A stretch of DNA of 64,000 bases from Christensenellaceae bacterium (GTDB lineage: Bacteria > Bacillota > Clostridia > Christensenellales > Borkfalkiaceae): positions 9,667 to 73,666 of the forward strand of contig JAZRTI010000020.1 of the NCBI GenBank assembly GCA_045651955.1. Direction: 5' to 3'. Positions 10,618-36,491 of the stretch are shown here, in pieces (positions within the stretch are counted from its first letter, which is position 1; the number at the start of each line of letters is the position of its first letter). A model generated the notes under the pieces. That model was not told where the DNA came from. It saw only the letters and a list, made by a program, of their open reading frames with translations, and did no database searches. A program made the translations under genes and the position numbers.

Positions 10618-10974
10618 ATGAGCAATATTATTCAAGCAATTTACAACATTTATCATTGCCCTATGTCACGTAATCGTGTTCGCTCATGGGACGAGCCTTC
10701 CTTTACCATTCAAGCGAGAGGTCGCCATGCCCACATACACCCACAGGCTCCTAAAATGGTATTTATTGAAAAGAATAAACGTGAATTTGTAAAAGGCAAA
10801 GAGGACTTGTATCGCAGATTGAGTGTTAGAGAATGTGCAAGGATTCAAACATTCCCTGATACCTTTGAATTTGTGTATACAGATGTTGCCGATGCATACA
10901 AAATGATTGGTAATGCAGTACCTGTTGAATTAGCATTTAGTGTAGCAAAAGAGATAAAAAAATTAGTAAAGTGA
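10618..10974 (+). pseudogene. C-terminal fragment of a DNA (cytosine-5)-methyltransferase (motifs IX-X only)
   Basis: [20 protein letters not shown] is motif IX-like and [13 protein letters not shown] is motif X. Motifs I-VIII, including the catalytic PC, are absent. An in-frame stop lies at 10606-10608, and AGGAGA lies upstream of ATG 10618. Confidence 0.7.
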
Positions 10975-10991
10975 TTTGCAAAGGAGTAAAA

Positions 10992-11855
10992 ATGAAAGTT
11001 TTTATAAGTTGGTCTGGATTATTAAGTCAAAAAATTGCCGAATTGTTAAAAAACTGGTTAGAACAATGCATCCAATCAATTGAAGCATTCTATTCTTCGG
11101 AAGACATCGAAAAAGGAGATTTGTGGAATGCCAAAGTTACAAGCGAGTTGCGAGATACAAATTTTGGTATTGTATGTTTAACGAAGGATAACATTAATGC
11201 GCCTTGGATTCATTTCGAAGCGGGGGCATTATCTAAAATGTTAGATTCAAGAGTTGCTACACTTGCAATCAATATACCTTTTTCAGATATAAAAGGTCCT
11301 CTAAGCACTTTTCAAGCAACAAAAATTGAAAAGGATGACATGTATAAGCTTTTAAAAGCAATAAACAATGCGCAAGATAAGCCATTGACGGAAGAAAAAT
11401 TAAAAAATACATTTGAAGCTTTTTGGGGTAAATTTGAAAACGATTTCATGGAGATTATTTCCCAAGAAACAGAAAAAGAAGATAAAAAGTCTACACCAAA
11501 AATCAATGTTGCGGAAACGGTAGAGGAAATATTACAATTGGTGCGTAGCCAAAATGCAATGATAAATAGTTCAACGAAAATCATTCCACATGAATATTTC
11601 GAAGATATGATGCAAAGAGCAATACATAGGAATGATACAAATTATATCTTCGACAAGTTATACGATTTCACCAAATATGTTTTGGAAAGATTTAGTGAGC
11701 AAGAACCAGAGGAAAATATAGAAGTGGAATTTTTCAAGCACCAATATTTACAGTTCGTCGAAGACCTCGTATCTGATTATCCAGTATGGAGAAGAAGATT
11801 TAGCAATTTACTTTCGGCTAAAAACAAGTTTAGGCATAAACTGACAGTTGGTTGA
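10992..11855 (+). CDS. TIR-domain protein with an uncharacterised helical C-terminal domain
   Basis: KVFISWSG...IAELLKNWL...SSEDIEKGDLW...FGIVCLTKDNINAPWIHFEAGAL matches the bacterial TIR_2-type pattern and includes a candidate catalytic Glu. AAGGAG lies upstream of ATG 10992. Confidence 0.7.
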   Translation: MKVFISWSGLLSQKIAELLKNWLEQCIQSIEAFYSSEDIEKGDLWNAKVTSELRDTNFGIVCLTKDNINAPWIHFEAGALSKMLDSRVATLAINIPFSDIKGPLSTFQATKIEKDDMYKLLKAINNAQDKPLTEEKLKNTFEAFWGKFENDFMEIISQETEKEDKKSTPKINVAETVEEILQLVRSQNAMINSSTKIIPHEYFEDMMQRAIHRNDTNYIFDKLYDFTKYVLERFSEQEPEENIEVEFFKHQYLQFVEDLVSDYPVWRRRFSNLLSAKNKFRHKLTVG

Positions 11856-12062: not shown

Positions 12063-12094
12063 ATTTGTCCACGCTTTTGAAAGGCGTGGACAAA
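12063..12094. terminator. stem-loop, possible terminator
   Basis: A perfect 12-bp stem atttgtccacgc/gcgtggacaaat has an 8-nt loop. The downstream T-run is weak. Confidence 0.4.
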
Positions 12095-12226
12095 TTTTAT
12101 GCTTTTTAAGCGATTTATTATGACGCGCTTTTTAGAATGTTTATTTTCATATGCAAAATGTATTGAAGTGCAAGGGGATAAGGAAAGAGTTGGAATAAAA
12201 AAGCGAAAAGAATTAAAGAAAAATTA

Positions 12227-12255
12227 TTGATTTTTTTGTCGAAAAATGTTATAAT
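12227..12255 (+). promoter_or_regulatory. candidate promoter of the acyl operon (TTGATT-17-TGtTATAAT)
   Basis: The -35 is at 12227-12232 and the extended -10 at 12247-12255. This would give a 5' UTR of about 185 nt. Confidence 0.45.
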
Positions 12256-12446
12256 CAATTGGGATAATTATAATTAACAATTCTTATGCATCTATTATGA
12301 ATAGATGTACGGAAAAAACTTGTGTTTTTTTACGTATTATAACGTGTTTTTCTATTGCTGTTTTTGCAAGAAAATTTACTAAAACATAAAAGAATTTCAA
12401 AAGGAAAAATTATACGGATATCAACCAGTGTTTGGTAGGAGAGGTT

Positions 12447-14372
12447 ATGCGGCTAACTAATATTGCGAATTGCAAAACCATTGATGAATATGTAAATCAA
12501 AAATCTCAAAAGTTGAAGTCGGGGGAACAATCCTTTTGTGCGTTGTTTGAACTGATGTTTTCAGAACAAAATAATACTTTTTGGGAAAGCAACGATGGGT
12601 ACCGAATTATTAAAACCACTTATGGCGAAGTAAAAAATACAATTTGCAAAAGGGCATATTTCTTGCAGGAGACATTATCGGGGATAGAAAAGGGATCGGT
12701 TATTGGTTTACATATGCAAAACAGTTTAAGTTGGATAGAAATATTCTGGGCTGTTTTGAAATGTGGATACCGACCTTTATTGCTAAATACCAGAATGGAT
12801 AAAAACACGTTAGCCGACGTAATAATTAGGGCGGAAGCAAAAGCGGTGATTTCCGACAGGGAACAGTTTTCCGTTCCTACGTATATGGCAGAGGAAATTG
12901 TTTGCGGCAAGCAAGAAAACAACAATACCGCTTTTGGGGAAGAGATATTGCTGATGACGTCCGGCACTTCCAACGCGGTAAAAATTTGCGTTTATGATGC
13001 ACCTAATATTATCAATCAAATTTTGAATGCCGAACAAATTGTAAAAACAAGCCGTTTAATCAAAAAGCATTATGAAGGCGAATTAAAATTACTAACCTTT
13101 TTGCCTTTCTATCATATATTTGGCTTAACTGCTATGTATATGTGGTTTGCGTTTTATGCACGAACCTTTGTGGCGTTAAAGGATATGTCCTCGCAATGTA
13201 TAGTGAATACCATTCGCAGGCATAAAGTAACGCATATTTTTGCAGTTCCGCTGTTTTGGAATACGGTTTACGAGCAAGCCATTAAAAAGGTAAAAGAACG
13301 GGGAGAAAAAACCTATCAAAAACTGAAAAAAGGATTAAAATTATCCGAGATGTTAAGCGGCATCCCTTTCTTGGCAAGGTTTTTCCGCAAAAAGGCTTTT
13401 AAGGAAGTTCGGGATAAACTGTTTGGCGAAAGCATCTGCTTTATGATAACCGGTGGCGGATGTATCGGGGAACACGTATTAAAATTCTTTAACGGGATTG
13501 GCTACCATTTATCCAACGGATACGGAATGTCCGAAATCGGCATTACTTCGGTTGAACTTTCGGAAGATAGCCGTATTTTGAATTCCGGAACGATAGGAAA
13601 ACCGATGGCATCCGTACAGTATAAAGTCAATGATGGCGGAGAGTTGTTTGTTAAGGGAAATTCCCTGTGCAAATATTATATGGAAAATGACCAAAAGTTT
13701 TTTGTGGAAGACGGTTGGTTTAGAACAAAAGATTTAGCAAGGGAAGTCAAGGGGCGCTATTATTTGATGGGAAGAGAGGACGATTTAATTGTTTCATCTT
13801 CGGGCGAAAATATCAACCCCAACTTATACGAGAACGCATTTGATTTTAAGCACGTAAAGCAAGTATGTTTGCTGGACGCACGTAAAAACGGACAACCCTA
13901 TCCCGTAATGCTGGTTTCGGTGGTAAAATATATCTCCCACGAAACGCGCGAAAAGTTGCTGCAAGAAATTAAAGAAAAACTGAAAACACTGAATTTGTTA
14001 TCCGAAATTAAGGAAATTGTTTTTGTCGGTGAAGATTTTATCAAAGGAAACGAATTCAAACTGAACAGAAAACGCCTGTCAGAAGAATTTAACCAGGGCA
14101 GGTTAAATATTTTATCTAACGTGGGGGACTGTGAAAAAGAATACGTCTTTGATAAGATTGAAAAGCAAGTAGCCCTTTGTTTTGAAAAAGTGTTAGGAAA
14201 AACGGTGGATAAAAACGCAGATTTTTTTGTTGACCTTGGCGGAAGCAGTTTGGAATATTTTACGTTAGTAACATATATCCAGGAAGAATTTGACTTGATA
14301 ATTCCGCTGGGTAATGATAAAAAATTATGTTCCATCAGTGATTTCAGTACGTTTATCAAAGGCAATATGTAA
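12447..14372 (+). CDS. adenylate-forming (acyl-AMP/CoA ligase-like) enzyme fused to a C-terminal carrier-protein domain
   Basis: The AMP-binding core motifs are LMTSGTSNAVKI (a degenerate P-loop), NGYGMSE, WFRTKDL and GREDDLIVSSSGENINP. The C-terminal ADFFVDLGGSSLEYF is a phosphopantetheine attachment motif. AGGAGAGG lies upstream of ATG 12447. Confidence 0.8.
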   Translation: MRLTNIANCKTIDEYVNQKSQKLKSGEQSFCALFELMFSEQNNTFWESNDGYRIIKTTYGEVKNTICKRAYFLQETLSGIEKGSVIGLHMQNSLSWIEIFWAVLKCGYRPLLLNTRMDKNTLADVIIRAEAKAVISDREQFSVPTYMAEEIVCGKQENNNTAFGEEILLMTSGTSNAVKICVYDAPNIINQILNAEQIVKTSRLIKKHYEGELKLLTFLPFYHIFGLTAMYMWFAFYARTFVALKDMSSQCIVNTIRRHKVTHIFAVPLFWNTVYEQAIKKVKERGEKTYQKLKKGLKLSEMLSGIPFLARFFRKKAFKEVRDKLFGESICFMITGGGCIGEHVLKFFNGIGYHLSNGYGMSEIGITSVELSEDSRILNSGTIGKPMASVQYKVNDGGELFVKGNSLCKYYMENDQKFFVEDGWFRTKDLAREVKGRYYLMGREDDLIVSSSGENINPNLYENAFDFKHVKQVCLLDARKNGQPYPVMLVSVVKYISHETREKLLQEIKEKLKTLNLLSEIKEIVFVGEDFIKGNEFKLNRKRLSEEFNQGRLNILSNVGDCEKEYVFDKIEKQVALCFEKVLGKTVDKNADFFVDLGGSSLEYFTLVTYIQEEFDLIIPLGNDKKLCSISDFSTFIKGNM

Positions 14373-15028
14373 TGATTTACTTTTTTAACTGGTTTACAAA
14401 AATAACTGCGTGGTTCGTTCAAAAATTATGTTTTAGAACGAAAGTATATTACGAGAAGAAGGAAGAGCAAGGGCGGCATATCAAAGGTCCGGCAATCATT
14501 ATTTCCAATCATACGTCCGTTTATGATTACGCAGTGTTCTTATTTGTGTTTTTCACCCGTACGTTAAGATACCAAATGGCAGAAATTCTGTTTAAGAAAG
14601 CCTTGTTACGTAACTTTTTGAAATGCATGGGCGGAATTTTTGTGGATAGAGATTCCAATGATTTCGGTTTTATGGATAAATCTCAAAAGGTGTTGGAAAA
14701 GGGTGGAGTTGTAGGAATATTCCCCGAAGGTAGGATTCCGGAACAATCAGAAGATAAACCGTTGGCGTTTAAGCCGGGCGCAATTCAACTGGCATTAACG
14801 GCAAACGTGCCCATAATTCCTGCGTATACAAACGGTTGTTACTTTCAAAAAAAACGTGCCCGTGTAATTATTGGAAAACCCATTTACCTATCCGAACTGT
14901 ATAACAGTCAGGAAGATTATAAAACCAACATGGAAAGGATTTCGCAGGAGCTACGAGAAAGAGTGGTCAATCTTGGCAATATCCTAAAAGAGAAGATAGA
15001 TTATGAAAGAGAAAAGAAAAATAAATAA
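14372..15028 (+). CDS. PlsC/LPLAT-family acyltransferase
   Basis: It has the HX4D motif NHTSVYD and an FPEGR motif. The start overlaps the upstream stop (TAATG). Confidence 0.85.
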   Translation: MIYFFNWFTKITAWFVQKLCFRTKVYYEKKEEQGRHIKGPAIIISNHTSVYDYAVFLFVFFTRTLRYQMAEILFKKALLRNFLKCMGGIFVDRDSNDFGFMDKSQKVLEKGGVVGIFPEGRIPEQSEDKPLAFKPGAIQLALTANVPIIPAYTNGCYFQKKRARVIIGKPIYLSELYNSQEDYKTNMERISQELRERVVNLGNILKEKIDYEREKKNK

Positions 15029-15638
15029 TTATCTTTTTTATGATTTTGTAAAAATAACCGCAGCCATTCCGGGGTTGTTGTGGTTCCGTACAAAAAAGAT
15101 TTACGTATCAGAAAAAGCAAAACAAAAAATTCGGGGCGGTGCGTTATTAATATCAAACCATTCGGGGGATTTTGACCCCATACTTTTGATGTTTAGTATT
15201 TGGTACCGCAGGCACCATTTTATTGCTACATCCGATTTGTTTAATACAAAGGTAAAACGCTTTTTCTTTGAGCATTTTCATTGTATTGAAATTGATAAGC
15301 AAAACGTCAGCATGAATACCTTTCGTGAAATTGTAGACCACCTGCAAAAGGATAAAATCGTTTCCATGTTCCCCGAAGGGCACGTAACCAGAAATGAGGA
15401 AGTGCAAAAATTCAAATCGGGCGTTGTTTTAATGGCGGTAACTGCAAAAAAGCCCATTATTCCCATATACCTAAAAAAACGGAAGAATATTTGGCAAAGG
15501 CAGCGTGTGGTTATTGGCGAACCAATCAATCCTTCGGAAATTTTCAGCAAAATGCCCACCCTTTCCGAAATGGAAAAAATCGCTGAAATTTTAAGAGAAA
15601 AAGAAAAAGAATTAAAAGAAATTGCGGATGCGCTATAA
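15003..15638 (+). CDS. PlsC/LPLAT-family acyltransferase (second copy)
   Basis: It has the HX4D motif NHSGDFD and an FPEGH motif. It overlaps the upstream gene by 26 nt. Confidence 0.85.
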   Translation: MKEKRKINNYLFYDFVKITAAIPGLLWFRTKKIYVSEKAKQKIRGGALLISNHSGDFDPILLMFSIWYRRHHFIATSDLFNTKVKRFFFEHFHCIEIDKQNVSMNTFREIVDHLQKDKIVSMFPEGHVTRNEEVQKFKSGVVLMAVTAKKPIIPIYLKKRKNIWQRQRVVIGEPINPSEIFSKMPTLSEMEKIAEILREKEKELKEIADAL

Positions 15639-15648
15639 GGAGAAACAT

Positions 15649-17172
15649 ATGATATTTGAAACAAGAGATTTATTCAAAAAGTACACGGATGAAGCAACTT
15701 TTGCAAAAATCAAAGAAATGGACACTTTGGTTGAAATGCTGGAAGAATGCAATCACAGCTTTGCCGATCAGTTTGCCATTACGGATGCAAGTGGGTCCTA
15801 TACCTATGCACAACTGTATAATGACGTTGCGCAATTCCGCGCCGTATTAAAGGAAAACAACGTTCCGGTTGGTTCTAACGTCGGTGTGTTCGGGGCTAAC
15901 TCCTATGCACTTGTAAAAGCGTTTTTAGCAATCACAACCTATGGTTGTACGGCGCTTGTTCTTCCCATGCAGTTGGACGATAAAACTATTTTCGGATGCT
16001 CTATGAAGTTCCGTTTAAGCGCCTTGGTATATCATAATGCGTTTGAAGAAAAAGTTGTTTTGGCAAAAAATATGAATAAAAATTTGATATTCATTGATTG
16101 GTCTGCAACTTCTTCGCAACAAGAACCGGCTGCTAAGGTAACTGCGGAAACCCCTTGTGCAATTATGTTTACGGGCGGTACGACCGGTAAAAGCAAAGGG
16201 GCGCTGCTCAATCACCGCGCAATGATGCAAGGAACCGTAAACGGTTGCTACGGATATAAGGACGTATTCAACCAAAAATATATGCTTGCATTACCCCTTT
16301 CGCATATCTTTGGGCTTGTTCGCAATATGCTAACCCCCCTTTATACGGGTAGCCACGTGTTCATTTGCAAAACTCCCAAGGATTTGTTTGCGGATATTGC
16401 TGCATTTAAGCCCACGGTGTTGGTGCTGGTACCGGCACTGCTTGAAATGGCATTGAATCTTTCCAAGAAATTTAACAGAAATATGCTTGGTCAGGATATG
16501 AAATATATTATTTGCGGTGCAGCAGCGGTAGCACCGTATCTGATTCAGGAATATGAAAAAATCGGAATTACGGTATTCCCCGGTTATGGGCTTACCGAAT
16601 CTGCTAACTTGGTTTCGGGAAATCCCGAACAAAAGGCTAAGCCCGAATCGGTTGGTATTCCTTATCCGCACCAGGAATTCAAAATTGTGAATGACGAATT
16701 GTGGCTGAAAGGCTTAAACATGATGAATGGATACGTGGGCGAGGAGGAAGAAAATCAAAACGCCTATGAAGATGGCTGGTTCAAAACGGGGGACTTGGTT
16801 CGCTTAGATGATGAAGGGTTCTTATATATCGTAGGCAGATGCAAGGATGTTATCATTTTAGATAACGGCGAAAACGTATCTCCTGCGGAAGTAGAAAACT
16901 ATTTCAACGCGATTGCCGTGGTGCAGGATTCCCAAGTGTTTGAGGACGTTTTAGAAAACGGCACGCATATTCTAGCGGTGGAAGTTGTGCCCAGGGCTAC
17001 GGAATTGGCAAAATTAGGCGTTACAAACGCTGCGGAATACGTGCTGGAACAATTAAAGGCAGTGAATGCAAACTTGCCCTCACACATGAAAGTAAGTAAG
17101 TTTGTTGTAAGGGACAGCGATTTTGAAAGAACGCCCAGTATGAAAATAGTGAGATATAAAAAATGCAATTAA
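15649..17172 (+). CDS. fatty-acid-AMP/CoA (or acyl-ACP) ligase
   Basis: The motifs are canonical: FTGGTTGKSKGALLNH, PGYGLTES, WFKTGDL, GRCKDVIILDNGENVSP and a C-terminal Lys in SMKIVRYK. AAGGAG lies upstream of ATG 15649. Confidence 0.85.
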   Translation: MIFETRDLFKKYTDEATFAKIKEMDTLVEMLEECNHSFADQFAITDASGSYTYAQLYNDVAQFRAVLKENNVPVGSNVGVFGANSYALVKAFLAITTYGCTALVLPMQLDDKTIFGCSMKFRLSALVYHNAFEEKVVLAKNMNKNLIFIDWSATSSQQEPAAKVTAETPCAIMFTGGTTGKSKGALLNHRAMMQGTVNGCYGYKDVFNQKYMLALPLSHIFGLVRNMLTPLYTGSHVFICKTPKDLFADIAAFKPTVLVLVPALLEMALNLSKKFNRNMLGQDMKYIICGAAAVAPYLIQEYEKIGITVFPGYGLTESANLVSGNPEQKAKPESVGIPYPHQEFKIVNDELWLKGLNMMNGYVGEEEENQNAYEDGWFKTGDLVRLDDEGFLYIVGRCKDVIILDNGENVSPAEVENYFNAIAVVQDSQVFEDVLENGTHILAVEVVPRATELAKLGVTNAAEYVLEQLKAVNANLPSHMKVSKFVVRDSDFERTPSMKIVRYKKCN

Positions 17173-17420
17173 GCAGAACTGAAATTTTAGAAAAATTACA
17201 AGACATCATGATTTCTATCAACGATAGTGATAGAGAAAAGTTGGAAAACACTACCGAAGAATCCAGACTTGTAGAAGACGTAGGCTTAAATTCGGTAGGA
17301 ATGTTATACCTTGTTATCGTGATTGAAGAAAGTTTCCAAATTAAATTTGAAAACGTGGGAACGGCAACGTTTGATACGATTGGCAAAGTGATTGATTATA
17401 TTGAGGCAAAGATGCAATGA
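17163..17420 (+). CDS. acyl carrier protein (stand-alone)
   Basis: It is 85 aa and acidic, with LVEDVGLNSVGMLYLV containing the Ser attachment site. It overlaps the ligase stop by 10 nt. Confidence 0.8.
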   Translation: MQLSRTEILEKLQDIMISINDSDREKLENTTEESRLVEDVGLNSVGMLYLVIVIEESFQIKFENVGTATFDTIGKVIDYIEAKMQ

Positions 17421-18457
17421 TTTGGTGGCAATCGGAATGCAAATTTGGTGATATGATTCGCATTTCTTTCGGCAATTTCTATCATTATGGGATATTTGTT
17501 TCCGAAGAAGAGGTAATTCAGTTTGGTTTACCACCTTTTGAGGGGCTTTTGAACAGAAAGTTTGAAGATATTTCGGTTTGTGTTTCGGATATAGACACTT
17601 TTTCGGGTGGGAGAGTTGTAGAGGTTGCTTCTACGGAAAAGTCAGATAAGCAAAAACGCCTTTCCCCCAAAAAAACCGTTCGGCGTGCGCGCGAAAGTAT
17701 AGGAAAAAAGGGCTACGACATCTTGCATAATAATTGCGAGCATTTTGCAAGATATTGCTATTTGGGCGAAAAAAGAAGTGAAACAACCGAAAGTGTTGTA
17801 TCTGAATGGAAAACCAAACCGGTGTGCGACGTGTATTTTTCCGTTATCCCAAATGAAATTGCATACGAAAGTTTACTGCCAAAGGAAAGAGATGCGGAAA
17901 TTGCCGCTGTTTCCAACGAAAAGGTGAAAAGATCCAAGTATTGGGTCTGGAAAACGCTGGAATACGCACTGTATCGCAGTTTTGGTTATAAATTGCAGGA
18001 TTTGCGCATCCAAAAAAACAAAACGGGCAAATGGACCAGTGATAAGTGCTTTTTCAGCCTTTCGCATACCCAAAACACCGTTGCCGTTATTGTTTCCAAC
18101 CAAGAAACGGGGATAGATATTGAAGATTGTTTATCCTTCGGTCAAAGGATGGAAAATCCAAATACGTTTCATTCTTTTGCTAAAAAAGTGCTTTCAAAAA
18201 AGGAGCCCTTTCCCCAAAACGAAAGGGAGTTACTTACTGTTTGGACGAAAAAAGAATGTTTATTCAAGGCTGGTAACAAAAAAGCGTTTATTCCCCATAA
18301 GATTTGCACAACAGATGGCAACGTTTCCACTTTGTACGTAAAATTCCAAGAAAAGGATTATGCGGTCAGCGTGATAGGAAAGGATCCTTTGCTGTTCAAA
18401 TTCTATTATTATGACGGGCAAAGCGCCACGAAATATAAGGATATGCAATGGAATTAA
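17417..18457 (+). CDS. LRAT/NlpC-P60-like domain fused to an Sfp-type 4'-phosphopantetheinyl transferase
   Basis: The N-terminal part has YHYGIFVS and NNCEHFARYC, which are the LRAT H-box and NCEHF catalytic Cys motif. The C-terminal part has FSLSHT, GIDIED and WTKKECLFKA, which are PPTase motifs. An ATGA overlap joins it to the ACP gene. Confidence 0.75.
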   Translation: MIWWQSECKFGDMIRISFGNFYHYGIFVSEEEVIQFGLPPFEGLLNRKFEDISVCVSDIDTFSGGRVVEVASTEKSDKQKRLSPKKTVRRARESIGKKGYDILHNNCEHFARYCYLGEKRSETTESVVSEWKTKPVCDVYFSVIPNEIAYESLLPKERDAEIAAVSNEKVKRSKYWVWKTLEYALYRSFGYKLQDLRIQKNKTGKWTSDKCFFSLSHTQNTVAVIVSNQETGIDIEDCLSFGQRMENPNTFHSFAKKVLSKKEPFPQNERELLTVWTKKECLFKAGNKKAFIPHKICTTDGNVSTLYVKFQEKDYAVSVIGKDPLLFKFYYYDGQSATKYKDMQWN

Positions 18458-19410
18458 AAGTCTTTATCTATATATTTGTTGGTATCGGTATCTTTTTTGC
18501 CTTGCCTTCTACCGTTTATACTGCAATGTTTTTTGGCATTTTTTATCGGCGAAAGAGTATTTTGCTTGAAAAAGATGATTTAACCAAAACGCAGTATTTT
18601 CCTGTTGCAGAACGCTTAAAAACGGATATTTTGTATGCAAAATCCCTTCCTTTTGAAAGGGTAACGTTGCAAGCGGCAGACGGGGTAACCCTGCTGGGAA
18701 GATATTATAATTGCAACACAAACAAGGCAATTATCTTTGTGCACGGCTATCAGTCTAATGCGTTTAATAACTTTGCCGCGGCAATGGTTGATTTTCTAAA
18801 TTGCGGATACAGCGTTCTTTTGGTTGACCAAAGGGCGCATGGGGAAAGCGGCGGTAAGTTTACCACCCTTGGCGATAGAGAGAAAGGGGATTTATTACTT
18901 TGGATTGATTATCTTTCCGCAAAGGCAGAATTAAATAATATCGTTGTCTATGGGATTTCCATGGGGGCTACAACGGTAGGTTTGACTGCGGAAAATATAA
19001 AGACGGATAAAGTAAAATGCTTAATTATGGAAGCGGGATTTACCTGTTTTTATGATGAACTGGTCAGCAGTTTGGGTGCCGTGTTTATGAAACAGGCGGC
19101 CTTAAACTATATTTATTTGATGTCTAAAAGCGTATTGAAAGCGGATATTAAGAAAAGCGTGGAACCATCCTTGAAAAACAATAAAATTCCCGTACTGTTT
19201 TTGCATGGGGATATAGATAAGGAAGTTTCCATGGATTTTACGGATAGAATGTATAACGCTTGCGCTGCCGATAAGCAAAAAATAACGGTTACAGGGGCAG
19301 GACATACCCTTTGTTATGTGATTGGTGGGGCAGTTTTACATCAACAAATTCATAAATTTTTAGATAAATTTATTTGCAAAAGCGAAAATAAAGAGGTGCA
19401 GAATGACTAA
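18448..19410 (+). CDS. membrane-anchored alpha/beta hydrolase (Ser nucleophile)
   Basis: It has an N-terminal TM segment, a GISMG nucleophile elbow, and HGDID and GAGHT triad candidates. Confidence 0.8.
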   Translation: MELKVFIYIFVGIGIFFALPSTVYTAMFFGIFYRRKSILLEKDDLTKTQYFPVAERLKTDILYAKSLPFERVTLQAADGVTLLGRYYNCNTNKAIIFVHGYQSNAFNNFAAAMVDFLNCGYSVLLVDQRAHGESGGKFTTLGDREKGDLLLWIDYLSAKAELNNIVVYGISMGATTVGLTAENIKTDKVKCLIMEAGFTCFYDELVSSLGAVFMKQAALNYIYLMSKSVLKADIKKSVEPSLKNNKIPVLFLHGDIDKEVSMDFTDRMYNACAADKQKITVTGAGHTLCYVIGGAVLHQQIHKFLDKFICKSENKEVQND

Positions 19411-20356
19411 ACAATTTGTTATATTGCCCGACGTAACGTGTGATTTGAATGCGGAAATTCGCAAAAAATACGATATTGACGTTATTTATGGGCACGTGCG
19501 CTATCCGAACGGACAAGAAGAAAAGTCTATGTTGGATTGGAAGGATTGCTCCATATTAAAAGAGCCTAGGGGGGAGGATTTTTACGAGGCGTTAAGTAAA
19601 AATCCCAACGGTTTTACAACGGCACCGCCGAATATACAGGAATTTTACAATGCTTTTGAAAAATATGTAAAGGAAGGATACGGAGTTCTTTCAATGACTA
19701 TTTCTTCGGGGATGAGCGGTACTTATAATTTCGCGCTGAAAGCAAAAGAAATGGTGCTGGAAAAATATCCGGATGCAAAAATAGAGTGTTTTGATTCCTT
19801 GCGCTTTGGTCCCGGTTACGGTTTAATGGCAATTCATGCCGCGCTGTTAAGGGAGGAAGGGAAATCTCTTGCCGAGGTAAAAGCATGTTTGGAAGAAAAG
19901 AAAAACTGCTTTCATCAAATGGGTTGGTTGGACGATTTATCCTTCGTTGCAAAAAAGGGTAGAATTTCACACGCCAAAGCGTTTATGGGAAAGTTGATAG
20001 GAATAAAGCCCTTGGGCGAATTTGATTATAACGGATTGACCACCATTGTTGGCAAAGCAAAAGGCGAAAAAACAGCTTATCAGGCAATACTTTCGTATAT
20101 GGAACAAACGATGGAAAATCCCGAAGAACAAGTGATTATTGTTGCGCATACCGCCAGAAGAGCTCAAGCAGAATGTTTCAAACAACTGATTGTGGATAAG
20201 TTCCACCCCAAGGAAATCTATTTGAATGACGTGTATCCTGCATGCGGCATCAATATAGGTCCTGGGCTGATGGCAGCATATTATGTAGGCAAGCCGCTTT
20301 CCGTCGGTTTAGAGGAAGAAAAGAAATTGATTTCTTCTATATTAGCAAAAAAGTAG
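19403..20356 (+). CDS. DegV-family fatty-acid-binding protein (FakB-like)
   Basis: It has a DegV-type N-terminus FVILPDVTCDL and is 317 aa. It overlaps the upstream gene by 8 nt. Confidence 0.8.
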   Translation: MTKQFVILPDVTCDLNAEIRKKYDIDVIYGHVRYPNGQEEKSMLDWKDCSILKEPRGEDFYEALSKNPNGFTTAPPNIQEFYNAFEKYVKEGYGVLSMTISSGMSGTYNFALKAKEMVLEKYPDAKIECFDSLRFGPGYGLMAIHAALLREEGKSLAEVKACLEEKKNCFHQMGWLDDLSFVAKKGRISHAKAFMGKLIGIKPLGEFDYNGLTTIVGKAKGEKTAYQAILSYMEQTMENPEEQVIIVAHTARRAQAECFKQLIVDKFHPKEIYLNDVYPACGINIGPGLMAAYYVGKPLSVGLEEEKKLISSILAKK

Positions 20357-20370
20357 AGAGGTAAAAGTCA

Positions 20371-21762
20371 ATGCAAAAGATTACGGGGAAAAAGAAATTG
20401 TTTCTTTACGGAATGGCCGGATTAGGTATCAATATGCTTAATCTGATTATCGGGTCGTACCTTTGCGACGCATTAATGGTTGAAGGTTTCCAAGAAAACA
20501 TTGAAAATTGGACGTACTTAAATAAAACCCTTGTCGTTGCGGGAATTTGGTCCGTTATGATTGCGATTGCTAAAATTTTGGACGGGGTAATTGATATTCC
20601 CTTTGCTGGATGGACGGATAAATTAAAATCCAGGTGGGGAAAAAGAAGACCTGCAATTTTACTGGGAATGATTCCTATGTTAATTGCATACGTTTTGTTC
20701 TTAACGCCCTTAAAAAATGCAGAACACAGCATTTTGAACACAATCTGGTTTGGGGGTATGCTTTGTGCATTCTACGCGTTCTACACGTTGACAATGGTTA
20801 CGTATTATGCAACCTTTTCGGAAATTGTAGATAACGAACATGACCGGGTTACCTTATCTAATTATAAAACCGTGTTTGACGTAGTGTATTTTGTGCTTGG
20901 TTATGCTTTAATTCCTGCGTTTATAGGTAGCGCAAATATTCGCATCATTGCATTGGCGTTCATCCCTTTATCTATGACGATGTTAATTCCTTTATTTATG
21001 ATTAAGGAAAAGTCAACGCTGGATAAGGATGTAGAAGAATACAAGAAAAACGGCGAACTGCAAGAGGATGAAGAAAAGGAAGAACACGTCGGAATTTTGG
21101 AATCTTTTAAGTATGCGGTAAAAAACAAAAGCTTTATGATTTGGATGGTTGTTTACTTTGCTTTGGAATTTTCTACGCAAATGTTTTTAACCGGACAAAA
21201 CGTTTTGTATTCGGGTTATATGGGCTTTGAAGGCTTTAATATTACAATAATTATGGCGTGTGCGTTTGCGCCTGTTCCCTTTACCTTGTTACTGTATAAC
21301 AAAATCGTCAAAAAACACGGGATCAGAATGGGATATATTTTCTCCCTAACGGCATACTTGCTGGCTATGGTGGTTACTGCAATTTGCTCGCAAAATATTA
21401 TCCCGAATGAAACCGCGCGACTGATTGTAGCGGCATGCGGCGGTATTTTATCTGCGTTCGGAACGGGATGTTTCTTTTCTATCAATTACACCATTCCTTC
21501 CACCCTTGCAGATAACGAAAGAAGAGCAACGGGAATTTCACACCCTGCAATGTACTTTGCAATCCAAGGGCTGTTTGGGGGCGTGGCAACCGCAATTTCA
21601 ACGGGTTTGGTATGGGTAAATCTGAAAAACCTTGGTGGCGGCAGCTATATTTGGTTGATGCCTATTGTTGTTATTGTGGGTGGACTTGTTTCTATGATTT
21701 TAACGAAATTTATGAGCAAGGACGTAAGCAGTATTGGTAAAATTGACAAACAAAAGGAATAA
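20371..21762 (+). CDS. MFS transporter of the GPH (MelB/MFS_2-like) type
   Basis: It has about 12 hydrophobic segments and a DGVIDIPFAGWTDKLKSRWGKRRP loop typical of glycoside-pentoside-hexuronide-type MFS transporters. Confidence 0.75.
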   Translation: MQKITGKKKLFLYGMAGLGINMLNLIIGSYLCDALMVEGFQENIENWTYLNKTLVVAGIWSVMIAIAKILDGVIDIPFAGWTDKLKSRWGKRRPAILLGMIPMLIAYVLFLTPLKNAEHSILNTIWFGGMLCAFYAFYTLTMVTYYATFSEIVDNEHDRVTLSNYKTVFDVVYFVLGYALIPAFIGSANIRIIALAFIPLSMTMLIPLFMIKEKSTLDKDVEEYKKNGELQEDEEKEEHVGILESFKYAVKNKSFMIWMVVYFALEFSTQMFLTGQNVLYSGYMGFEGFNITIIMACAFAPVPFTLLLYNKIVKKHGIRMGYIFSLTAYLLAMVVTAICSQNIIPNETARLIVAACGGILSAFGTGCFFSINYTIPSTLADNERRATGISHPAMYFAIQGLFGGVATAISTGLVWVNLKNLGGGSYIWLMPIVVIVGGLVSMILTKFMSKDVSSIGKIDKQKE

Positions 21763-21765
21763 TTC

Positions 21766-23403
21766 ATGAAGTTAAAAAGGATAAACGGTCATACTTTTGA
21801 ATGTATGATAAAAAACGGCCTGGCAAATCTGAAACAGTACGAGGAAAAAGTGAACGCAATGAACGTTTTTCCTGTTACTGACGGTGATACGGGTACGAAT
21901 ATGTGCTTAACGCTGGAAAACGGGATTAGGCACGCGCAATCAAATGATGATTTGGGGCAATACCTAAAAGGGTTAAGTGAAGGTATGCTGTTGGGCGCAC
22001 GGGGAAACTCGGGTGTTATTCTTTCGCAAATTTTCAGGGGGTTTTTCTTGGAACTTGCAAGGGACAGTATTGCAGACGTTTCCGAATTGAAAGATGCCTT
22101 TATCCGCGGATATCAAACCGCATACCAAACGGTTGCCCGCCCGGTAGAAGGGACAATGCTTACTGTTGCGCGTTTGGGCATAGAGAATATTAAAGCCCAG
22201 GTTGGCAGGGGGATATACATTCCCAATCTGTTTTCTATGTACTTGGCGGAAATGAAAAAAACCTTAGCGCAGACCCCCGAAATGTTATCCGTTTTGAAAG
22301 ATGCCGGTGTGGTTGATAGCGGCGGTATGGGGTACGTACTTTTGGTAGAAGGGATGGAAAAGTACTTGTATGGGGAAGAAATTACGGCGCACAGCCTAGA
22401 TATTTCTCCGCAAAACACTGTGTATACCAACAGCGGCACCTTTAACGCTTCTTCGCATTTTGACCTGGGCTATTGCATGGAGTTTTTGCTGCAATTATTA
22501 AATTACAGGCAAGCAATTTGCTTGGATGACTATATCAAAGTTTTGCAAACGTTTGGGGATTCCCTTGTTTGCGTGCAAAATGATGAAATCATTAAAGTAC
22601 ATATTCACACAAAAGTTCCAAGTAAAATTATAGAAGAAAGCCAAAAGTATGGTGAATTTGTTTCTTTCAAGTTGGAAAACATGCAACTGCAGCATGACGA
22701 GTTGATGGAAACGGTTGCCGTAACAAAGGATATTCCCCATAAGCCGATTGCCATGATTGCAATTTCCAATGGGGAGGGAATTAAAGATTTATTTGATTCC
22801 TTTGGTTGCGACGTGATAATTGACGGCGGAAAAACCATGAATACTTCGGCAGAAGAAATTTTGCATGCTTTGCAAAGTGTATCTGCGGATAAAATTGTGT
22901 TTTTCCCCAATCATGAAAATATTGTGAAAGCGGCTGAACAAGCGGTAAAAATATCCAATCTGAACAACGTGGTTATTATGCCAAGCAAAAACGTAATGGA
23001 ATGTTATTACGCGCTGGCAATGGATATTCCTGATTGCGAGGATGTGGATGCAAGGGTTCAAGCCATGCAAGAAGGTTGCAGCGCAGTTAGAACCTTCCAA
23101 ATTACGCAATGTGTAAAAAGTTGCGTTTGCAATGGTATTGTGTGCACAAAAGGGGAGTTTGTTATCATAGAAAAAGGAACTCCCGTTGCCTGCGTAAAAG
23201 ACTATCGCCACGTGATTGATATTTTTGAGTATAAGAAAGTTTTTGATGAAGCCGAAAATTGCATTATTTTCACGGGTTTAGGGCTCAACAATTTTGATTC
23301 ACAACAATACGAACAGTTGTTAAAGGATAAGTTTGGCGAAATTGACGTTTCCTTTTTGGATGGAAAACAAAGAATTTATGATTTAATAATTGGGGTGATA
23401 TAA
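21766..23403 (+). CDS. fakA: Dak2-domain protein of the YloV/FakA (fatty acid kinase) type
   Basis: It has the DhaL-like N-terminus FPVTDGDTGTNM...RGNSGVILSQ and is 545 aa, the same architecture as Firmicute FakA. Confidence 0.7.
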   Translation: MKLKRINGHTFECMIKNGLANLKQYEEKVNAMNVFPVTDGDTGTNMCLTLENGIRHAQSNDDLGQYLKGLSEGMLLGARGNSGVILSQIFRGFFLELARDSIADVSELKDAFIRGYQTAYQTVARPVEGTMLTVARLGIENIKAQVGRGIYIPNLFSMYLAEMKKTLAQTPEMLSVLKDAGVVDSGGMGYVLLVEGMEKYLYGEEITAHSLDISPQNTVYTNSGTFNASSHFDLGYCMEFLLQLLNYRQAICLDDYIKVLQTFGDSLVCVQNDEIIKVHIHTKVPSKIIEESQKYGEFVSFKLENMQLQHDELMETVAVTKDIPHKPIAMIAISNGEGIKDLFDSFGCDVIIDGGKTMNTSAEEILHALQSVSADKIVFFPNHENIVKAAEQAVKISNLNNVVIMPSKNVMECYYALAMDIPDCEDVDARVQAMQEGCSAVRTFQITQCVKSCVCNGIVCTKGEFVIIEKGTPVACVKDYRHVIDIFEYKKVFDEAENCIIFTGLGLNNFDSQQYEQLLKDKFGEIDVSFLDGKQRIYDLIIGVI

Positions 23404-23404
23404 A

Positions 23405-24355
23405 ATGGAAATTTGGCAAATAATATTATTAGCTGTTGCCGCATCCGGGATTTTATTCTGGATTTCTTCCTATTTTATCATTGCGTTTATTGTTTACAGA
23501 ATCACCTTGGTAAGAACCTCTCCCGAAAAGTGGTCAAGACAATGCAGTATTACGGATGACGAAGAGCAGGTTGCAATGTATAAGCAGTCTGAAATTTGGT
23601 TATCTGCGTTTATTGATAAAAAAACGGACGTAGATATTGTAAGCGATGGATTCCATCTGTTTGGGGAATATCTGGATTTCGGATGCGATAAAGCGGTAAT
23701 TATCATTGCGGGCAGAACGGAAGGTTGCAAATATTCGTATTATTTTGCCGAACCGTACCGCAAGGCAGGATATAACGTTTTGGTAATTGATAACCGTGCA
23801 CACGGGTTGTCCGAGGGAAAATATAATTCTTTGGGGCTTAAAGAATATTCGGATATTGTTGCCTGGGGAAAATTTTTACACGAAGAAAAACACAATCAAA
23901 AAATTGTTCTTCACGGCATTTGCATTGGCTCTGCCACGGCTTTATATGCACTGATTTCAGACCGTTGCCCCGATTATATGGTGGGTATGGTTGCAGACGG
24001 CATGTACGTTGATTTTAAGGAAACAACCAAAAACCATATGATAGAGCAAAACCGTCCGGTTTACCCTTGCTTAAACCTTCTTATGTGGTATTTTAAGTTG
24101 TTTACAAAAGAAGATGCGGTGAAAAACGGTCCGATTCAAGTGATTGGTAAATTAAAAAAACCCATACTTTTTATTTACAGTAAAAAAGATATTTACTCAC
24201 TGCCCGAAAAGGGGCAACTTTTATACGATACCTGCCAAAGTAAAAAGAAATTGGTTTGGTTTGAAAAGGGTGCTCATTCTAAGGTGAGAATTAACAATCA
24301 GGAAAAATACGATAACACAGTAATAGAATATCTAAATGAAACCTTTAATACATAG
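23405..24355 (+). CDS. membrane-anchored alpha/beta hydrolase paralog with a Cys in the nucleophile elbow
   Basis: It is a paralog of 18448..19410 (VLVIDNRAHGLSEGK versus VLLVDQRAHGESGGK). Its elbow reads GICIG, with Cys codon TGC at 23921-23923, instead of GXSXG. Confidence 0.75.
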   Translation: MEIWQIILLAVAASGILFWISSYFIIAFIVYRITLVRTSPEKWSRQCSITDDEEQVAMYKQSEIWLSAFIDKKTDVDIVSDGFHLFGEYLDFGCDKAVIIIAGRTEGCKYSYYFAEPYRKAGYNVLVIDNRAHGLSEGKYNSLGLKEYSDIVAWGKFLHEEKHNQKIVLHGICIGSATALYALISDRCPDYMVGMVADGMYVDFKETTKNHMIEQNRPVYPCLNLLMWYFKLFTKEDAVKNGPIQVIGKLKKPILFIYSKKDIYSLPEKGQLLYDTCQSKKKLVWFEKGAHSKVRINNQEKYDNTVIEYLNETFNT

Positions 24356-25446
24356 TGGGGTATATTTTGGAAAAAGAAAAAAAGACGGGCAGTTCAAAAA
24401 AGACCAAACGGATCATTGCTTTGATTGCCGTTTTAAGTGGGCTTAGCAGCGGTACAATCTTTGCCGCGAAAGAAGTTTACGATTCCTGTTTTGATAGGTA
24501 TGATAAGAAAAAATTGAGTACCGTTTACGGTGAATTTGATTACAGCAGGGTTTCTGATAAACTGAATCGCCACCTGTTTCATTTTTACTCGGGAAAAATT
24601 AAATTGCAAGGGTATTTTTATCCTGCGGAAAATTCCAAGGGAGTGGTGGTTGTCAGCCATGGCATGCATGCGGGCGCAGATGACTATTTGCCCATAATCA
24701 GTTATTTGGTAAACTGCAATTTTTCGGTTTTTGCATACGACTGCAAAGGAACTTATAATTCAGAAGGCGACTCTACGGTGGGAATGATTACACCGTTGGT
24801 TGACTTAGATTATGCGCTGCGCTTTATTGAAAAGGATTCGTATTTATCAAAGCAACCCATATTTTTGTTGGGACATTCCTGGGGCGGATATGCAGCAACT
24901 TCCGTGCTTTCCCTGCATGATAATATTAAAGCTTGTGCGGCAATTGCACCTTTTAACAGCGGTTATACGCTGATTGCTGAAAAAGGGGAGCAGTATGCAG
25001 GACCTTTGGCGGGTGGTTTGCCCAAACTGTTCTTGGATACTTATCAAAAAATACTGTTCAAGAATTACACCAAATATGATGCGGTAAAGGGAATTAACAG
25101 TACGGATGTTCCCGTATTGATTGCGCACGGAAATAAGGATAGCGTTATTACTTTTGACGGGCAGTCGGTTATATCGCACAGAAAGGAAATTCGGGCTGAA
25201 AACGTGTATTATTATATTGGAAAAGCCGAAAATTCGGGGCACAATACGATTATGCACTCTAAAGCTGCTGTAAAATATCAAAAAGAAGTGGAAGAAGAGT
25301 TGGCAAAATTAAAAGCGGAAAAAGGGAAAACCTTAACCGAAAGCGACTTGGAAGCCTTTTGCAACAACGTAAATCATTCTCTTTACAGCGAAGTAAATGA
25401 AGAATTGATGAATAAAATTGTGGATATGTTTAATAAAACATTATAA
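24355..25446 (+). CDS. membrane-anchored alpha/beta hydrolase
   Basis: It has an N-terminal TM segment, a GHSWG elbow, and AHGNKD and SGHN triad candidates. The start is uncertain (GTG 24355 or TTG 24367). Confidence 0.75.
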   Translation: MGYILEKEKKTGSSKKTKRIIALIAVLSGLSSGTIFAAKEVYDSCFDRYDKKKLSTVYGEFDYSRVSDKLNRHLFHFYSGKIKLQGYFYPAENSKGVVVVSHGMHAGADDYLPIISYLVNCNFSVFAYDCKGTYNSEGDSTVGMITPLVDLDYALRFIEKDSYLSKQPIFLLGHSWGGYAATSVLSLHDNIKACAAIAPFNSGYTLIAEKGEQYAGPLAGGLPKLFLDTYQKILFKNYTKYDAVKGINSTDVPVLIAHGNKDSVITFDGQSVISHRKEIRAENVYYYIGKAENSGHNTIMHSKAAVKYQKEVEEELAKLKAEKGKTLTESDLEAFCNNVNHSLYSEVNEELMNKIVDMFNKTL

Positions 25447-25459
25447 AGGAGAAAAAAAT

Positions 25460-25930
25460 ATGTATTGTCAAAACTGCGGTAAATTTATTGGGAACGATGC
25501 AACGTTATGTGATGAGTGCAGGGAGAAATCTGGGGCGGCTGAAACCGTTACCCAAAATGCTACGCAAGCGCCAAACCCTGCAAATCAATTTACATATACC
25601 CCCGAAAGCGCGGTTAGCTTAGGTAAGGCCATTGCGGCAATGGTTTTATCCAACGTGGGTTTTTTGCTTATTTACATAGGTATTTTCGTGCTGGTTGGCT
25701 TACTGGCGTCAGAATCTGATTTGGGTGGAATGCCTGTCCTTTTCTTTTTTGGGTTTATTGTAACTTTGCTTGGGTTGATTTTCGGTATTCAATCCATCAA
25801 CCACTTTAAGGCAACATCTATGGTAAAAACCGGAAAAAGAATACCCCTTTTAATTTTGGGCATTATTTCTGTTGTGCTGGCATCCCTTGGGTTGTTTATT
25901 GGGGCTATTCTATTGATTGCGTTGCTGTAA
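25460..25930 (+). CDS. zinc-ribbon membrane protein
   Basis: MYCQNCGKFIGNDATLCDEC forms a zinc ribbon, followed by about 4 TM segments. AAGGAG lies upstream of ATG 25460. Confidence 0.7.
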   Translation: MYCQNCGKFIGNDATLCDECREKSGAAETVTQNATQAPNPANQFTYTPESAVSLGKAIAAMVLSNVGFLLIYIGIFVLVGLLASESDLGGMPVLFFFGFIVTLLGLIFGIQSINHFKATSMVKTGKRIPLLILGIISVVLASLGLFIGAILLIALL

Positions 25931-25946
25931 ATAACTGAATAGTGTA

Positions 25947-25989
25947 GCGGTTAAACGGTTCCGTGTTGGGGTGTTTAGCCGCTTTTTTT
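25947..25989 (+). terminator. rho-independent terminator
   Basis: The stem gcggttaaac/gtttagccgc is followed by a T7 run. This is the first terminator after the 12.4-25.9 kb gene string. Confidence 0.75.
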
Positions 25990-36395: not shown

Positions 36396-36430
36396 TTTAC
36401 ATTTTTTTATAAACGCTGCGTACTTTTTTG

Positions 36431-36491
36431 ATAGAAACATTTTCTATTTTGTTCAAAAATAATTTGAACAAAAATATTTCATTTTGAACAA
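36431..36491. repeat. operator/iteron-like inverted and direct repeats
   Basis: There is an inverted repeat atagaaa-cat-tttctat (36431-36447) and a 9-bp inverted repeat ttgttcaaa/tttgaacaa (36449-36471). A third tttgaacaa lies at 36483-36491, 20 bp downstream. Confidence 0.6.

Follow-up and report, generated by a model that had tools for sequence, protein, structure and literature searches.

Operon Organization and Boundaries

A stretch of 64,000 nucleotides from contig JAZRTI010000020.1 of a Christensenellaceae bacterium (GenBank assembly GCA_045651955.1), hereafter called the window, contains an operon in which known families of lipid acyl metabolism are brought together in a new combination. 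This type of operon is widespread and undescribed. It consists of 13 open reading frames (ORFs), all on the + strand, tightly packed at positions 12447-25930 between a promoter at 12227-12255 and a terminator at 25946-25989. The encoded proteins are, in order, an adenylate-forming ligase with its own carrier domain (LigCP), two PlsC-family acyltransferases (AT1 and AT2), a second ligase (Lig2), a free acyl carrier protein (ACP), a fusion of an LRAT/PLAAT-like domain with an Sfp-type phosphopantetheinyl transferase (PPTase), an alpha/beta hydrolase (Hyd1), a DegV/FakB-family protein, an MFS_2 transporter, a FakA-type kinase, two further alpha/beta-fold enzymes (Hyd2 and Hyd3) and a small zinc-ribbon membrane protein.

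The locus had been noticed in an earlier reading of the DNA letters (the original prediction), and the same list of ORFs and junctions was recovered. The genes are joined by TAATG at 14370-14374, a 26-nt overlap at 15003, a 10-nt gap before the ATG at 15649, a 10-nt overlap at 17163, ATGA (4-nt overlap) at 17417, overlaps of 10 nt at 18448 and 8 nt at 19403, consecutive gaps of 14, 3 and 1 nt, a shared nucleotide at 24355 and, last, a 13-nt gap before 25460. Thus, 9 out of 12 junctions overlap or are at most 3 nt apart, and the remaining gaps are 10, 13 and 14 nt long.

The upstream boundary of the unit is marked by the terminator hairpin of the preceding TIR gene (12063-12095, inverted repeat I1, 15-pair stem and T-run), and the spacer before the operon measures 591 nt instead of the 575 bp given earlier. 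The promoter-like element expected there was found as the top + strand sigma-70-type match upstream of the operon, TTGATT and TATAAT separated by 17 nt, in which the -10 hexamer carries a TG extension (TGTTATAAT). The whole 31-nt block TATTGATTTTTTTGTCGAAAAATGTTATAAT (12225-12255) is identical in the closest relative of the cluster (locus L003), the proteins of which are 49-88% identical to those of the window, and the remaining spacer has diverged. A perfect palindrome, CATCTATT-ATG-AATAGATG, was detected by an inverted-repeat scan in the operon leader (12289-12307) and is also kept in L003 (2388-2404), where the promoter block and the palindrome together occupy 2324-2404; among the other fetched loci, none had it. 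It is a candidate operator or RNA hairpin. Conservation of the block in these two sequences speaks for a real promoter, perhaps with an operator; together with the palindrome, it may form a regulatory site for some factor. When the operon and its leader (approximately 190 nt) were scanned with Rfam, the sole match was BsrG, under the threshold, and no riboswitch was found.

Downstream, the terminator proposed at 25947 was confirmed by folding (-20.7 kcal/mol, z = -3.45) as a hairpin at 25946-25982, the 12-bp stem of which precedes U7; the pattern scan had missed it because of its long loop. Inside the operon, weak consensus promoter-like sites occur, for example at 24730-24759, and the number of promoter- and terminator-like sites equals that expected from shuffled sequences. 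The suggestion that the genes are AT-richer and therefore accessory holds in its first half, and modestly (GC content 39.4% vs. 41.2%). The GC content at third codon positions (GC3) is equal to that of neighbouring genes, which rules out a foreign origin argued from base composition, and a megablast search of the operon against plasmids gave zero matches.

Ligases, Carrier Proteins and Paired Acyltransferases

The domain assignments of the original prediction were all reproduced by Pfam and NCBIfam scans of the 13 proteins. In motif alignments of 32-75 cluster-linked homologues per protein, the catalytic residues and the carrier serines are retained.

LigCP (12447-14372) combines an adenylate-forming ligase (AMP-binding, 138 bits) with a C-terminal carrier domain (PP-binding, 22.8 bits; Ser601 in GGSSL), and its core motifs and carrier serine are conserved in 65 sequences. 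In NCBIfam, it aligns with long-chain fatty acid ligases and with the adenylation-thiolation (A-T) part of carboxylic acid reductase, residues 148-622 corresponding to positions 211-695 out of 1160 in the reductase model, an organization also reminiscent of fatty acyl-AMP ligase-carrier proteins. Unlike carboxylic acid reductase, LigCP has no reductase domain, is accompanied by PlsC-type acyltransferases and scores 61 bits against a cut-off of 1300. It is 23% identical to Lig2 and differs from it by a degenerate P-loop and by an insertion of about 45 residues after the LPxxHxxG motif, which resembles that of long-chain ACSL-type ligases.

Lig2 (15649-17172; AMP-binding, 203 bits; P-loop TGGTTGKSKG) is similar to acyl-CoA and acyl-ACP synthetases. 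Its best NCBIfam matches are mostly fatty acid and o-succinylbenzoate (MenE-type) CoA ligases, with long-chain fatty-acid-CoA ligases at the top, and its PDB matches are fatty-acyl, feruloyl and MenE-type ligases. The free carrier (17163-17420), an atypical ACP of 85 amino acids with Ser45 in GLNSV, was recognised by NCBIfam ACP models alone and below their cut-offs (at most 39.7 bits); its serine is conserved in 75 sequences.

AT1 (14372-15028; PF01553, 82 bits; motifs NHTSVYD, FVDR and FPEG) and AT2 (15003-15638; PF01553, 86 bits; NHSGDFD and FPEG) are paralogues with 33% identity, both of which have the HX4D and FPEG motifs. NHTSVYD/FPEG in AT1 and NHSGDFD/FPEG in AT2 are conserved in about 70 sequences each. 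The top NCBIfam match of AT2 is the LplT-Aas fusion model PRK08633 (77 bits, far under its cut-off), and its sole PDB match is PlsC of T. maritima (5KYM).

Natural gene fusions were found between these neighbours. AT1 and AT2 form a single ORF in L051 and L071 and a two-domain protein of about 420 amino acids in L083 and L084, whereas AT2 and Lig2 are joined in L073 in one 722-aa ORF with an N-terminal acyltransferase and a C-terminal ligase. The latter has the domain order of Aas, in agreement with the Aas-like logic that had been suggested for the locus.

LRAT-PPTase Fusion Protein

The protein encoded at 17417-18457 consists of an LRAT/PLAAT-like domain (residues 1-130) and an Sfp-type PPTase (residues ~135-340), assigned by the Pfam LRAT and ACPS families. 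The first part scores 73.5 bits with PF04970 (threshold 24.3) and contains His23, Gln35 and Cys107, the latter in NCEHF; the second reaches 26.3 bits with PF01648 (threshold 25) and has the GxDxE and WxxKExxxK motifs. In an alignment of 14 diverse sequences, 38-70% identical to the window protein, H23, Q35, C107 (NNCEHF), G232, D234, W276, K279, E280 and K284 are invariant and E236 is nearly so.

The AlphaFold model has a mean predicted local distance difference test score (pLDDT) of 85 and a predicted template modelling score (pTM) of 0.66, the latter making the mutual orientation of the domains uncertain. A Foldseek search with the N-terminal domain gave target-normalised template modelling (TM) scores of 0.79-0.81 to PLAAT3/AdPLA and 0.74 to HRASLS2, so that its fold is similar to that of mammalian PLAAT/HRASLS/LRAT enzymes. 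In alignment with PLAAT, H23 and C107 fall on the catalytic His23 and Cys113, and Gln35 stands at the position of PLAAT His35. The invariant glutamine in place of histidine as the third residue of the triad distinguishes the bacterial domain from the mammalian enzymes, as does its prokaryotic context. It also differs from them in having no C-terminal membrane anchor: a transmembrane segment was sought in the fusion and none was predicted, the C-terminus being the PPTase domain. This domain was matched by Foldseek to AASDHPPT, Sfp and PptT (E = 2e-8 to 4e-7), with which it shares the two-lobed fold and both motifs, and its gene adjoins those of carriers that it presumably primes. Unlike typical Sfp-type PPTases, it bears an LRAT domain fused to the N-terminus, and its Pfam score is barely over the threshold. 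On the basis of sequences and models, it may be concluded that the fusion is genuine.

Fak Unit, Transporter and Alpha/Beta-Fold Enzymes

The DegV/FakB-family fatty-acid-binding protein (19403-20356) scores 202 bits with TIGR00762 (cut-off 99.7). Its PDB matches include FakB2 and FakB1 of S. aureus, and the FakB1 equivalog model is not reached (105 vs. 350 bits). In the FakA-type kinase catalytic subunit (21766-23403), the Dak2, middle and C-terminal domains (PF02734, PF21645 and PF13684) all exceed their cut-offs. The protein also contains the DGDTGTN motif and scores 477.6 bits with TIGR03599 (YloV; cut-off 396.1).

Between these two genes lies that of the transporter (20371-21762), a member of the MFS_2 (GPH) family (PF13347, 125 bits) with D71xxxD75 in transmembrane helix 2; both aspartates are invariant across homologues. 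In MelB and MFSD2A, the DxxxD of this helix is the binding place of the coupling cation. Structure search with the model (pLDDT 78) gave TM scores of 0.77-0.79 to MelB and 0.68-0.71 to MFSD2A, both Na+-coupled symporters, of which MFSD2A imports lysophosphatidylcholine; sequence and profile searches against PDB produced marginal matches only (MFSD2A, E = 0.12; SUC1, E = 0.008). Judged by model and sequence, the protein fits a cation-coupled importer, a fit that does not separate sugar from lysolipid as the cargo. A paralogue of about 630 amino acids belongs to the short-form clusters described below (for example, L001 6825-8714; L085 17191-19116), and L085 carries both paralogues. The longer form has a C-terminal extension of about 200 residues with extra hydrophobic segments and no Pfam match.

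Three membrane-anchored alpha/beta hydrolases had been expected in the operon. The fold and the hydrophobic N-termini were found in all three, and the serine nucleophile in two. Hyd1 (18448-19410; Hydrolase_4 and related families) has a GISMG motif with the serine present in 37 out of 37 sequences and a hydrophobic N-terminus (residues 1-32). Hyd3 (24355-25446), assigned by Pfam, has GHSWG with the serine in all 41 sequences and a lysine-rich N-terminus followed by a transmembrane segment (residues 19-39), and this signal-anchored enzyme probably faces outwards. Hyd2 (23405-24355) contains GICIG, that is, GxCxG instead of GxSxG. The cysteine was found in 32 out of 32 sequences (the window protein and 31 homologues), His291 and Asp262 are conserved, and the best PDB match is the esterase 5G59. 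The same GxCxG motif occurs in more distant Fak modules, L083 (19823-20770, - strand), L085 (13050-14006) and L086 (9040-10017). Since the cysteine is invariant and the motif recurs in distant relatives, Hyd2 is regarded as an enzyme with a cysteine nucleophile. Such a nucleophile in an alpha/beta fold is characteristic of transferases, BAAT and PhaC among them, and Hyd2, a candidate acyltransferase, may be a transferase and not a hydrolase. Its gene consistently accompanies those of FakA, DegV and MFS_2, also where the ligase core is absent. Proteins of this type may form an uncharacterised acyltransferase family. The N-termini of both Hyd1 and Hyd2 comprise about 30 hydrophobic residues followed by Arg/Lys; the topology of the three enzymes was deduced from such N-terminal features and not from a dedicated predictor.

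The last gene (25460-25930) encodes a protein with a zinc ribbon (CxxC...CxxC) and 3-4 transmembrane segments, for which Pfam and further scans gave no significant family match. Its relatives are small proteins with the N-terminal CxxC...CxxC, a low-complexity linker and 3-4 transmembrane helices. They follow the cluster in many loci, including L001 (11024-11686) and L086 (5322-5744), and belong to both cluster types described below. Up to three tandem copies occur elsewhere; tandem genes were found in L011, L013, L024 and L059.

Distribution and Variants of the Cluster

An exhaustive profile search with the fusion protein gave 619 clusters at 50% identity (E <= 1e-30), some of which match the LRAT part or the PPTase part alone and may represent standalone proteins or fragments. 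In a GTDB scan with one genome per species, at least 525 stretches encode a relative of the fusion, not all of which need be fusions themselves, and the best 80 of them (L003-L082) were inspected for layout. The relatives are thus spread over at least several hundred genomes, one per species, almost all of them from uncultured Clostridia of the gut or rumen. The labels of the best 80 include Ca. Scatosoma, Oscillospiraceae, Christensenellaceae, Acutalibacteraceae, Ruminococcus, Saccharofermentans, Mageeibacillus, a Butyrivibrio crossotus bin and others. The full long-form cluster of L066 lies on a contig labelled "uncultured Bacteroides sp.", whereas the other best-80 loci belong to Clostridia; an error of binning or labelling is the probable cause here, not a transfer to Bacteroidota.

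Two layouts were recognised by tblastn mapping of the 13 window proteins onto the loci. The long form, as in the window, is LigCP-AT1-AT2-Lig2-ACP-LRAT/PPT-Hyd1-DegV-MFS2-FakA-Hyd2-(Hyd3)-(Zn-ribbon), and the short form is LigCP-MFS2(~630 aa)-AT1-AT2-Lig2-ACP-LRAT/PPT-(Hyd3)-(Zn-ribbon, 1-3 copies). In the 60 loci that are not truncated by the end of a contig, the fusion gene is adjoined by AT2 (98%), ACP (95%), AT1 (93%), LigCP (90%), Lig2 (87%), MFS2 (78%), Hyd3 (53%), DegV and FakA (43% each), Hyd2 (42%) and Hyd1 (40%). Gene order is kept at 35-88% protein identity across several families of Clostridia. This is the co-conservation that had been predicted, and the objection that the genes might not travel together fails. 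The flanks are different: ORF clustering across the 80 loci in search of conserved flanking genes (a regulator, fab/pls) found only shadow ORFs, and the closest relative, L003, shares 0 out of 8 tested flanking genes. The cluster is therefore a discrete module in variable surroundings.

Contexts of more distant MFS_2 homologues (L083-L086) show how the module is assembled. In L083, a metagenome-assembled genome (MAG) of Bacilli, the order is MFS_2-DegV-FakA-PlsX-PPTase(unfused)-LigCP-ATAT-ACP, with a Cys-type Hyd2 nearby, and in L084 it is MFS-FakA-LigCP-ATAT-LRAT(unfused). L085 contains a Fak unit with its own 468-aa MFS_2 directly before a short-form core with a second MFS_2 of 641 amino acids. 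In L086, the Fak unit stands alone, as Zn-ribbon-AT-DegV-FakA-Hyd2(Cys)-MFS_2. Because the Fak unit is optional and also occurs on its own, the operon of the window is, as far as sequence comparison goes, a composite of separable modules, namely a ligase/acyltransferase/PPTase core and an optional Hyd1-DegV-MFS_2-FakA-Hyd2 unit.

These variants change two parts of the original prediction. Two parallel sets of ligase, carrier and acyltransferase had been proposed, and no strict one-to-one correspondence was found: some clusters without Lig2, or without both Lig2 and ACP, still hold both acyltransferases, and AT1 fuses with AT2. The supposed independence from PlsX/PlsY is doubtful, as plsX is situated between fakA and the PPTase gene in L083.

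Comparison with Known Systems

Re-acylation of lysophospholipids by Aas/LplT and its split form, AasC/LpaT of Chlamydia trachomatis, are the nearest precedents (PMC6167442, PMC8154325). As in E. coli Aas/LplT, a PlsC-family acyltransferase is combined with an adenylate-forming enzyme loading a carrier, and a gene of the major facilitator superfamily lies alongside; the separate genes recall AasC/LpaT, and the AT2-Lig2 fusion recalls Aas itself. Unlike Aas, which uses the housekeeping ACP, the operon brings its own PPTase and two carriers, one fused to a ligase and the other a free atypical ACP. It also differs in having two paired acyltransferases and two ligases, in the addition of LRAT, FakAB and alpha/beta-fold enzymes, and in its hosts, Gram-positive-type Clostridia. 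LplT is an MFS_1 protein (TC 2.A.1.42), while the operon transporter belongs to MFS_2/GPH and has no LplT model match. Scores with the Aas equivalog models are far below the cut-offs (PRK08043, 23 vs. 886 bits; PRK08633, 58-77 vs. 1221; PRK06814, 117 vs. 1349), and generic fatty-acid-CoA ligase models outscore them. Judged by sequence, the operon is not a member of the Aas/LplT family because of these sub-cut-off scores, the GPH transporter and the dedicated carriers.

Exogenous fatty acids are used in other bacteria through FakAB/PlsX, with an auxiliary ACP (AcpB) in E. faecalis (PMC6509188, PMC12594616), and PlsX interconverts acyl-phosphate and acyl-ACP (PMC12594616, PMC10146087). The three-domain FakA and the DegV/FakB protein of the operon resemble this system and exceed their family cut-offs; PlsX adjoins FakA in L083, with PPTase and ACP in the same cluster; and a second ACP devoted to exogenous fatty acids, as the free ACP may be, has a precedent in AcpB (PMC6509188). 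The differences are that the kinase is embedded among ligases, carriers, acyltransferases, a transporter and membrane enzymes, that Fak genes are absent from about 57% of the clusters and that no FabT-type regulator is linked.

The AMP-binding/PP-binding didomain of LigCP is shared with nonribosomal peptide synthetases (NRPS) and NRPS-like proteins, and no condensation, reductase or thioesterase Pfam domains were found in the 13 proteins or their conserved neighbours. There is likewise no MBOAT protein of a Dlt-type system and no DltA model among the best 25 of the 102 NCBIfam matches of Lig2. The original prediction did not recognise the arrangement as a characterised pathway; similarly, targeted searches of the literature, which covered subscription papers incompletely, gave no description of the cluster or of the LRAT-PPTase fusion.

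Proposed Function and Alternative Explanations

In our opinion, with moderate confidence, the operon assimilates exogenous fatty acids, and probably lysolipids or partial glycerides, into the glycerolipids of the bacterium. This is suggested by the natural fusions (AT1-AT2 and AT2-ligase) and by PlsX in the Bacilli variant, since the presence of PlsX inside L083 connects the system with primary phospholipid acylation that uses exogenous fatty acids. In the core, LigCP would load a fatty acid onto its own carrier domain and Lig2 would load one onto the free ACP, after the PPTase half had converted both carriers into the holo form. AT1 and AT2 would then move the carrier-bound acyl groups to two positions of a glycerol-based acceptor, giving a diacyl lipid. 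Sequences and models show the families, motifs and folds of the proteins, the co-conservation and fusions of the genes and the linkage to PlsX; we infer the substrates throughout, and candidates for the acceptor are glycerol 3-phosphate, a glycerophosphodiester or a lysolipid. The LRAT/PLAAT half, with its Cys-His pair, might strip or transfer acyl groups of phospholipids, or edit acyl-carriers.

Where the Fak unit is present, the MFS_2 protein would act as a cation-coupled symporter in the direction of import and take up an amphiphilic acyl-lipid. This lipid may be deacylated or transacylated by two membrane-anchored enzymes, Hyd1 (Ser) and Hyd2 (Cys), DegV/FakB would bind the released fatty acid and FakA would phosphorylate it to acyl-phosphate for PlsY/PlsX. 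The outward-facing Hyd3 could free fatty acids or lysolipids from dietary or host lipids. A part for the zinc-ribbon protein in the pathway may be supposed.

Several observations weigh against this assignment. The LRAT domain is absent from L083, where the PPTase is unfused, and is unfused in L084, and being dispensable in one variant and separate in the other, it may have a peripheral role. The transporter is a GPH protein and not LplT, is equally near to sugar transporters, was ranked by Foldseek closer to MelB than to MFSD2A and in a profile search of PDB matched SUC1 alone (E = 0.008). With the NCBIfam equivalog models for Aas, PlsC or FadD, none of the ligases and acyltransferases comes near the cut-off. 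The AT2-Lig2 fusion is known from one MAG, with an assembly or sequencing error as a possible cause. An A-T didomain with a dedicated PPTase is, moreover, also typical of specialised-metabolite clusters.

The last point leads to an explanation that we consider rather unlikely, in which the cluster makes a specialised acylated lipid instead of bulk membrane lipid, for example N-acyl-phosphatidylethanolamine (NAPE), a glycolipid acylated on its head group or the fatty ester of an alcohol from host or diet, such as a sterol, bile acid or retinoid. In this view, the acyl donor would be carried by the carrier proteins, and LRAT and/or the Cys-type Hyd2 would carry out the committed transfer. The didomain, the free carrier and the dedicated Sfp-type PPTase are a hallmark of "NRPS-like" clusters. 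LRAT/PLAAT enzymes are known as transferases acting on alcohols or amines, and the invariant cysteine of Hyd2 follows the pattern of BAAT/PhaC transferases. The cluster is patchy and its contexts are variable, and microbial 3-O-acylation of bile acids has been reported for Christensenella in a review that names no enzymes (PMC13602198). However, the reported bile-acid acyl groups are short-chain and LigCP has the look of an enzyme for long chains. Condensation, reductase, thioesterase, glycosyltransferase and exporter genes are all missing from the conserved set, the nearest solved relatives of the sole transporter are cation-coupled importers, the linkage to PlsX and FakAB indicates primary phospholipid metabolism, and LRAT is missing in the L083 variant.

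Detoxification or buffering of fatty acids, with toxic free (unsaturated) fatty acids captured and esterified into inert lipids so that the membrane is protected, and not so that the cost of biosynthesis is spared, seems unlikely to us. Its enzymology would be identical to that of assimilation, from which the sequence evidence does not separate it. The habitat is rich in free fatty acids, all loci coming from gut or rumen MAGs, and two activation routes (kinase and ligases) together with three alpha/beta-fold enzymes would suit such a purpose; an importer would work against it, and no efflux pump or hydratase is linked in the 80 loci. That the operon is no more than a row of unrelated genes, or of units transcribed separately, is highly improbable and effectively refuted already. 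The optional Fak unit and the weak internal promoter-like sites, such as that at 24730-24759, could be taken in this sense. Against them stand the counts of internal promoters and terminators at shuffle expectation, the 9 out of 12 junctions that overlap or lie within 3 nt, the order conserved at 35-88% protein identity across families and the natural fusions between neighbouring genes.

Apart from assimilation as such, a more speculative and improbable possibility concerns the fusion protein itself, which as a bifunctional enzyme of a new kind could couple carrier priming to CoA-independent transacylation, enabling uncultured gut Clostridia to rebuild or decorate lipids without fatty acid synthesis of type II (FASII) or acyl-CoA. 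The PLAAT-like cysteine would accept an acyl chain from a phospholipid, either imported or resident, and hand it on to a carrier docked on the PPTase lobe, at its phosphopantetheine arm. By the reverse route, the chain would go from the carrier to an amine or alcohol, giving NAPE or esters of host alcohols. Such an enzyme would act together with the Cys-type alpha/beta-fold enzyme on host and dietary lipids.

Significance

Within the least-studied microbiota of the gut and rumen, the module occurs commonly in uncultured Oscillospiraceae, Christensenellales-like lineages, Ruminococcus and the lineage of the window, which is related to Ca. Scatosoma. Bacterial PLAAT/LRAT homologues receive their first genomic context from the cluster, which also draws attention to a conserved alpha/beta-fold enzyme with a cysteine nucleophile in linkage with fatty acid kinase. 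If assimilation is its function, this would be a third, carrier-dedicated route of exogenous fatty acid use, beside FakAB/PlsX and AasS/Aas, and would bear on the efficacy of FASII-targeted drugs against such bacteria. A route that builds membranes from dietary or host lipid would also be a nutritional dependency usable for culturing. A bifunctional LRAT-PPTase, if true, could explain fatty acid auxotrophy and resistance to cultivation and might provide bioactive lipids, NAPE for instance, from a native microbial source. The link to fatty acid dependence in uncultured gut Clostridia is testable, and the parts of the mechanism are so far unsurprising in principle.

Other Genes of the Window

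The rest of the 64-kb window contains housekeeping genes, without FASII or phospholipid genes, and is uninformative in this respect at this length. Just upstream of the operon, at 10618-11855, a truncated C-5 cytosine DNA methylase (profile positions 227-324 out of 324) overlaps the start of the gene for the TIR-domain protein (294 amino acids, GC content 33%, GC3 0.295), and this stretch looks like a remnant of an inserted defence island. Directly after argCJBDF, positions 32327-34582 encode a 751-aa protein in which a transglutaminase-like core is combined with a Listeria-Bacteroides repeat; a transglutaminase-core protein is present near the Fak unit of L086 as well (12609-15815), probably by coincidence. 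The region 34676-38000 has a GC content of 36-38% and a strongly negative AT skew, and ORFs of 490 (34676-36148, - strand) and 216 (37307-37957) amino acids there have no Pfam match. A tyrosine integrase gene (54991-56103, - strand) adjoins a ComEC-like competence gene, and an 843-aa protein encoded at 59461-61992 has a central PadR domain as its sole Pfam match.

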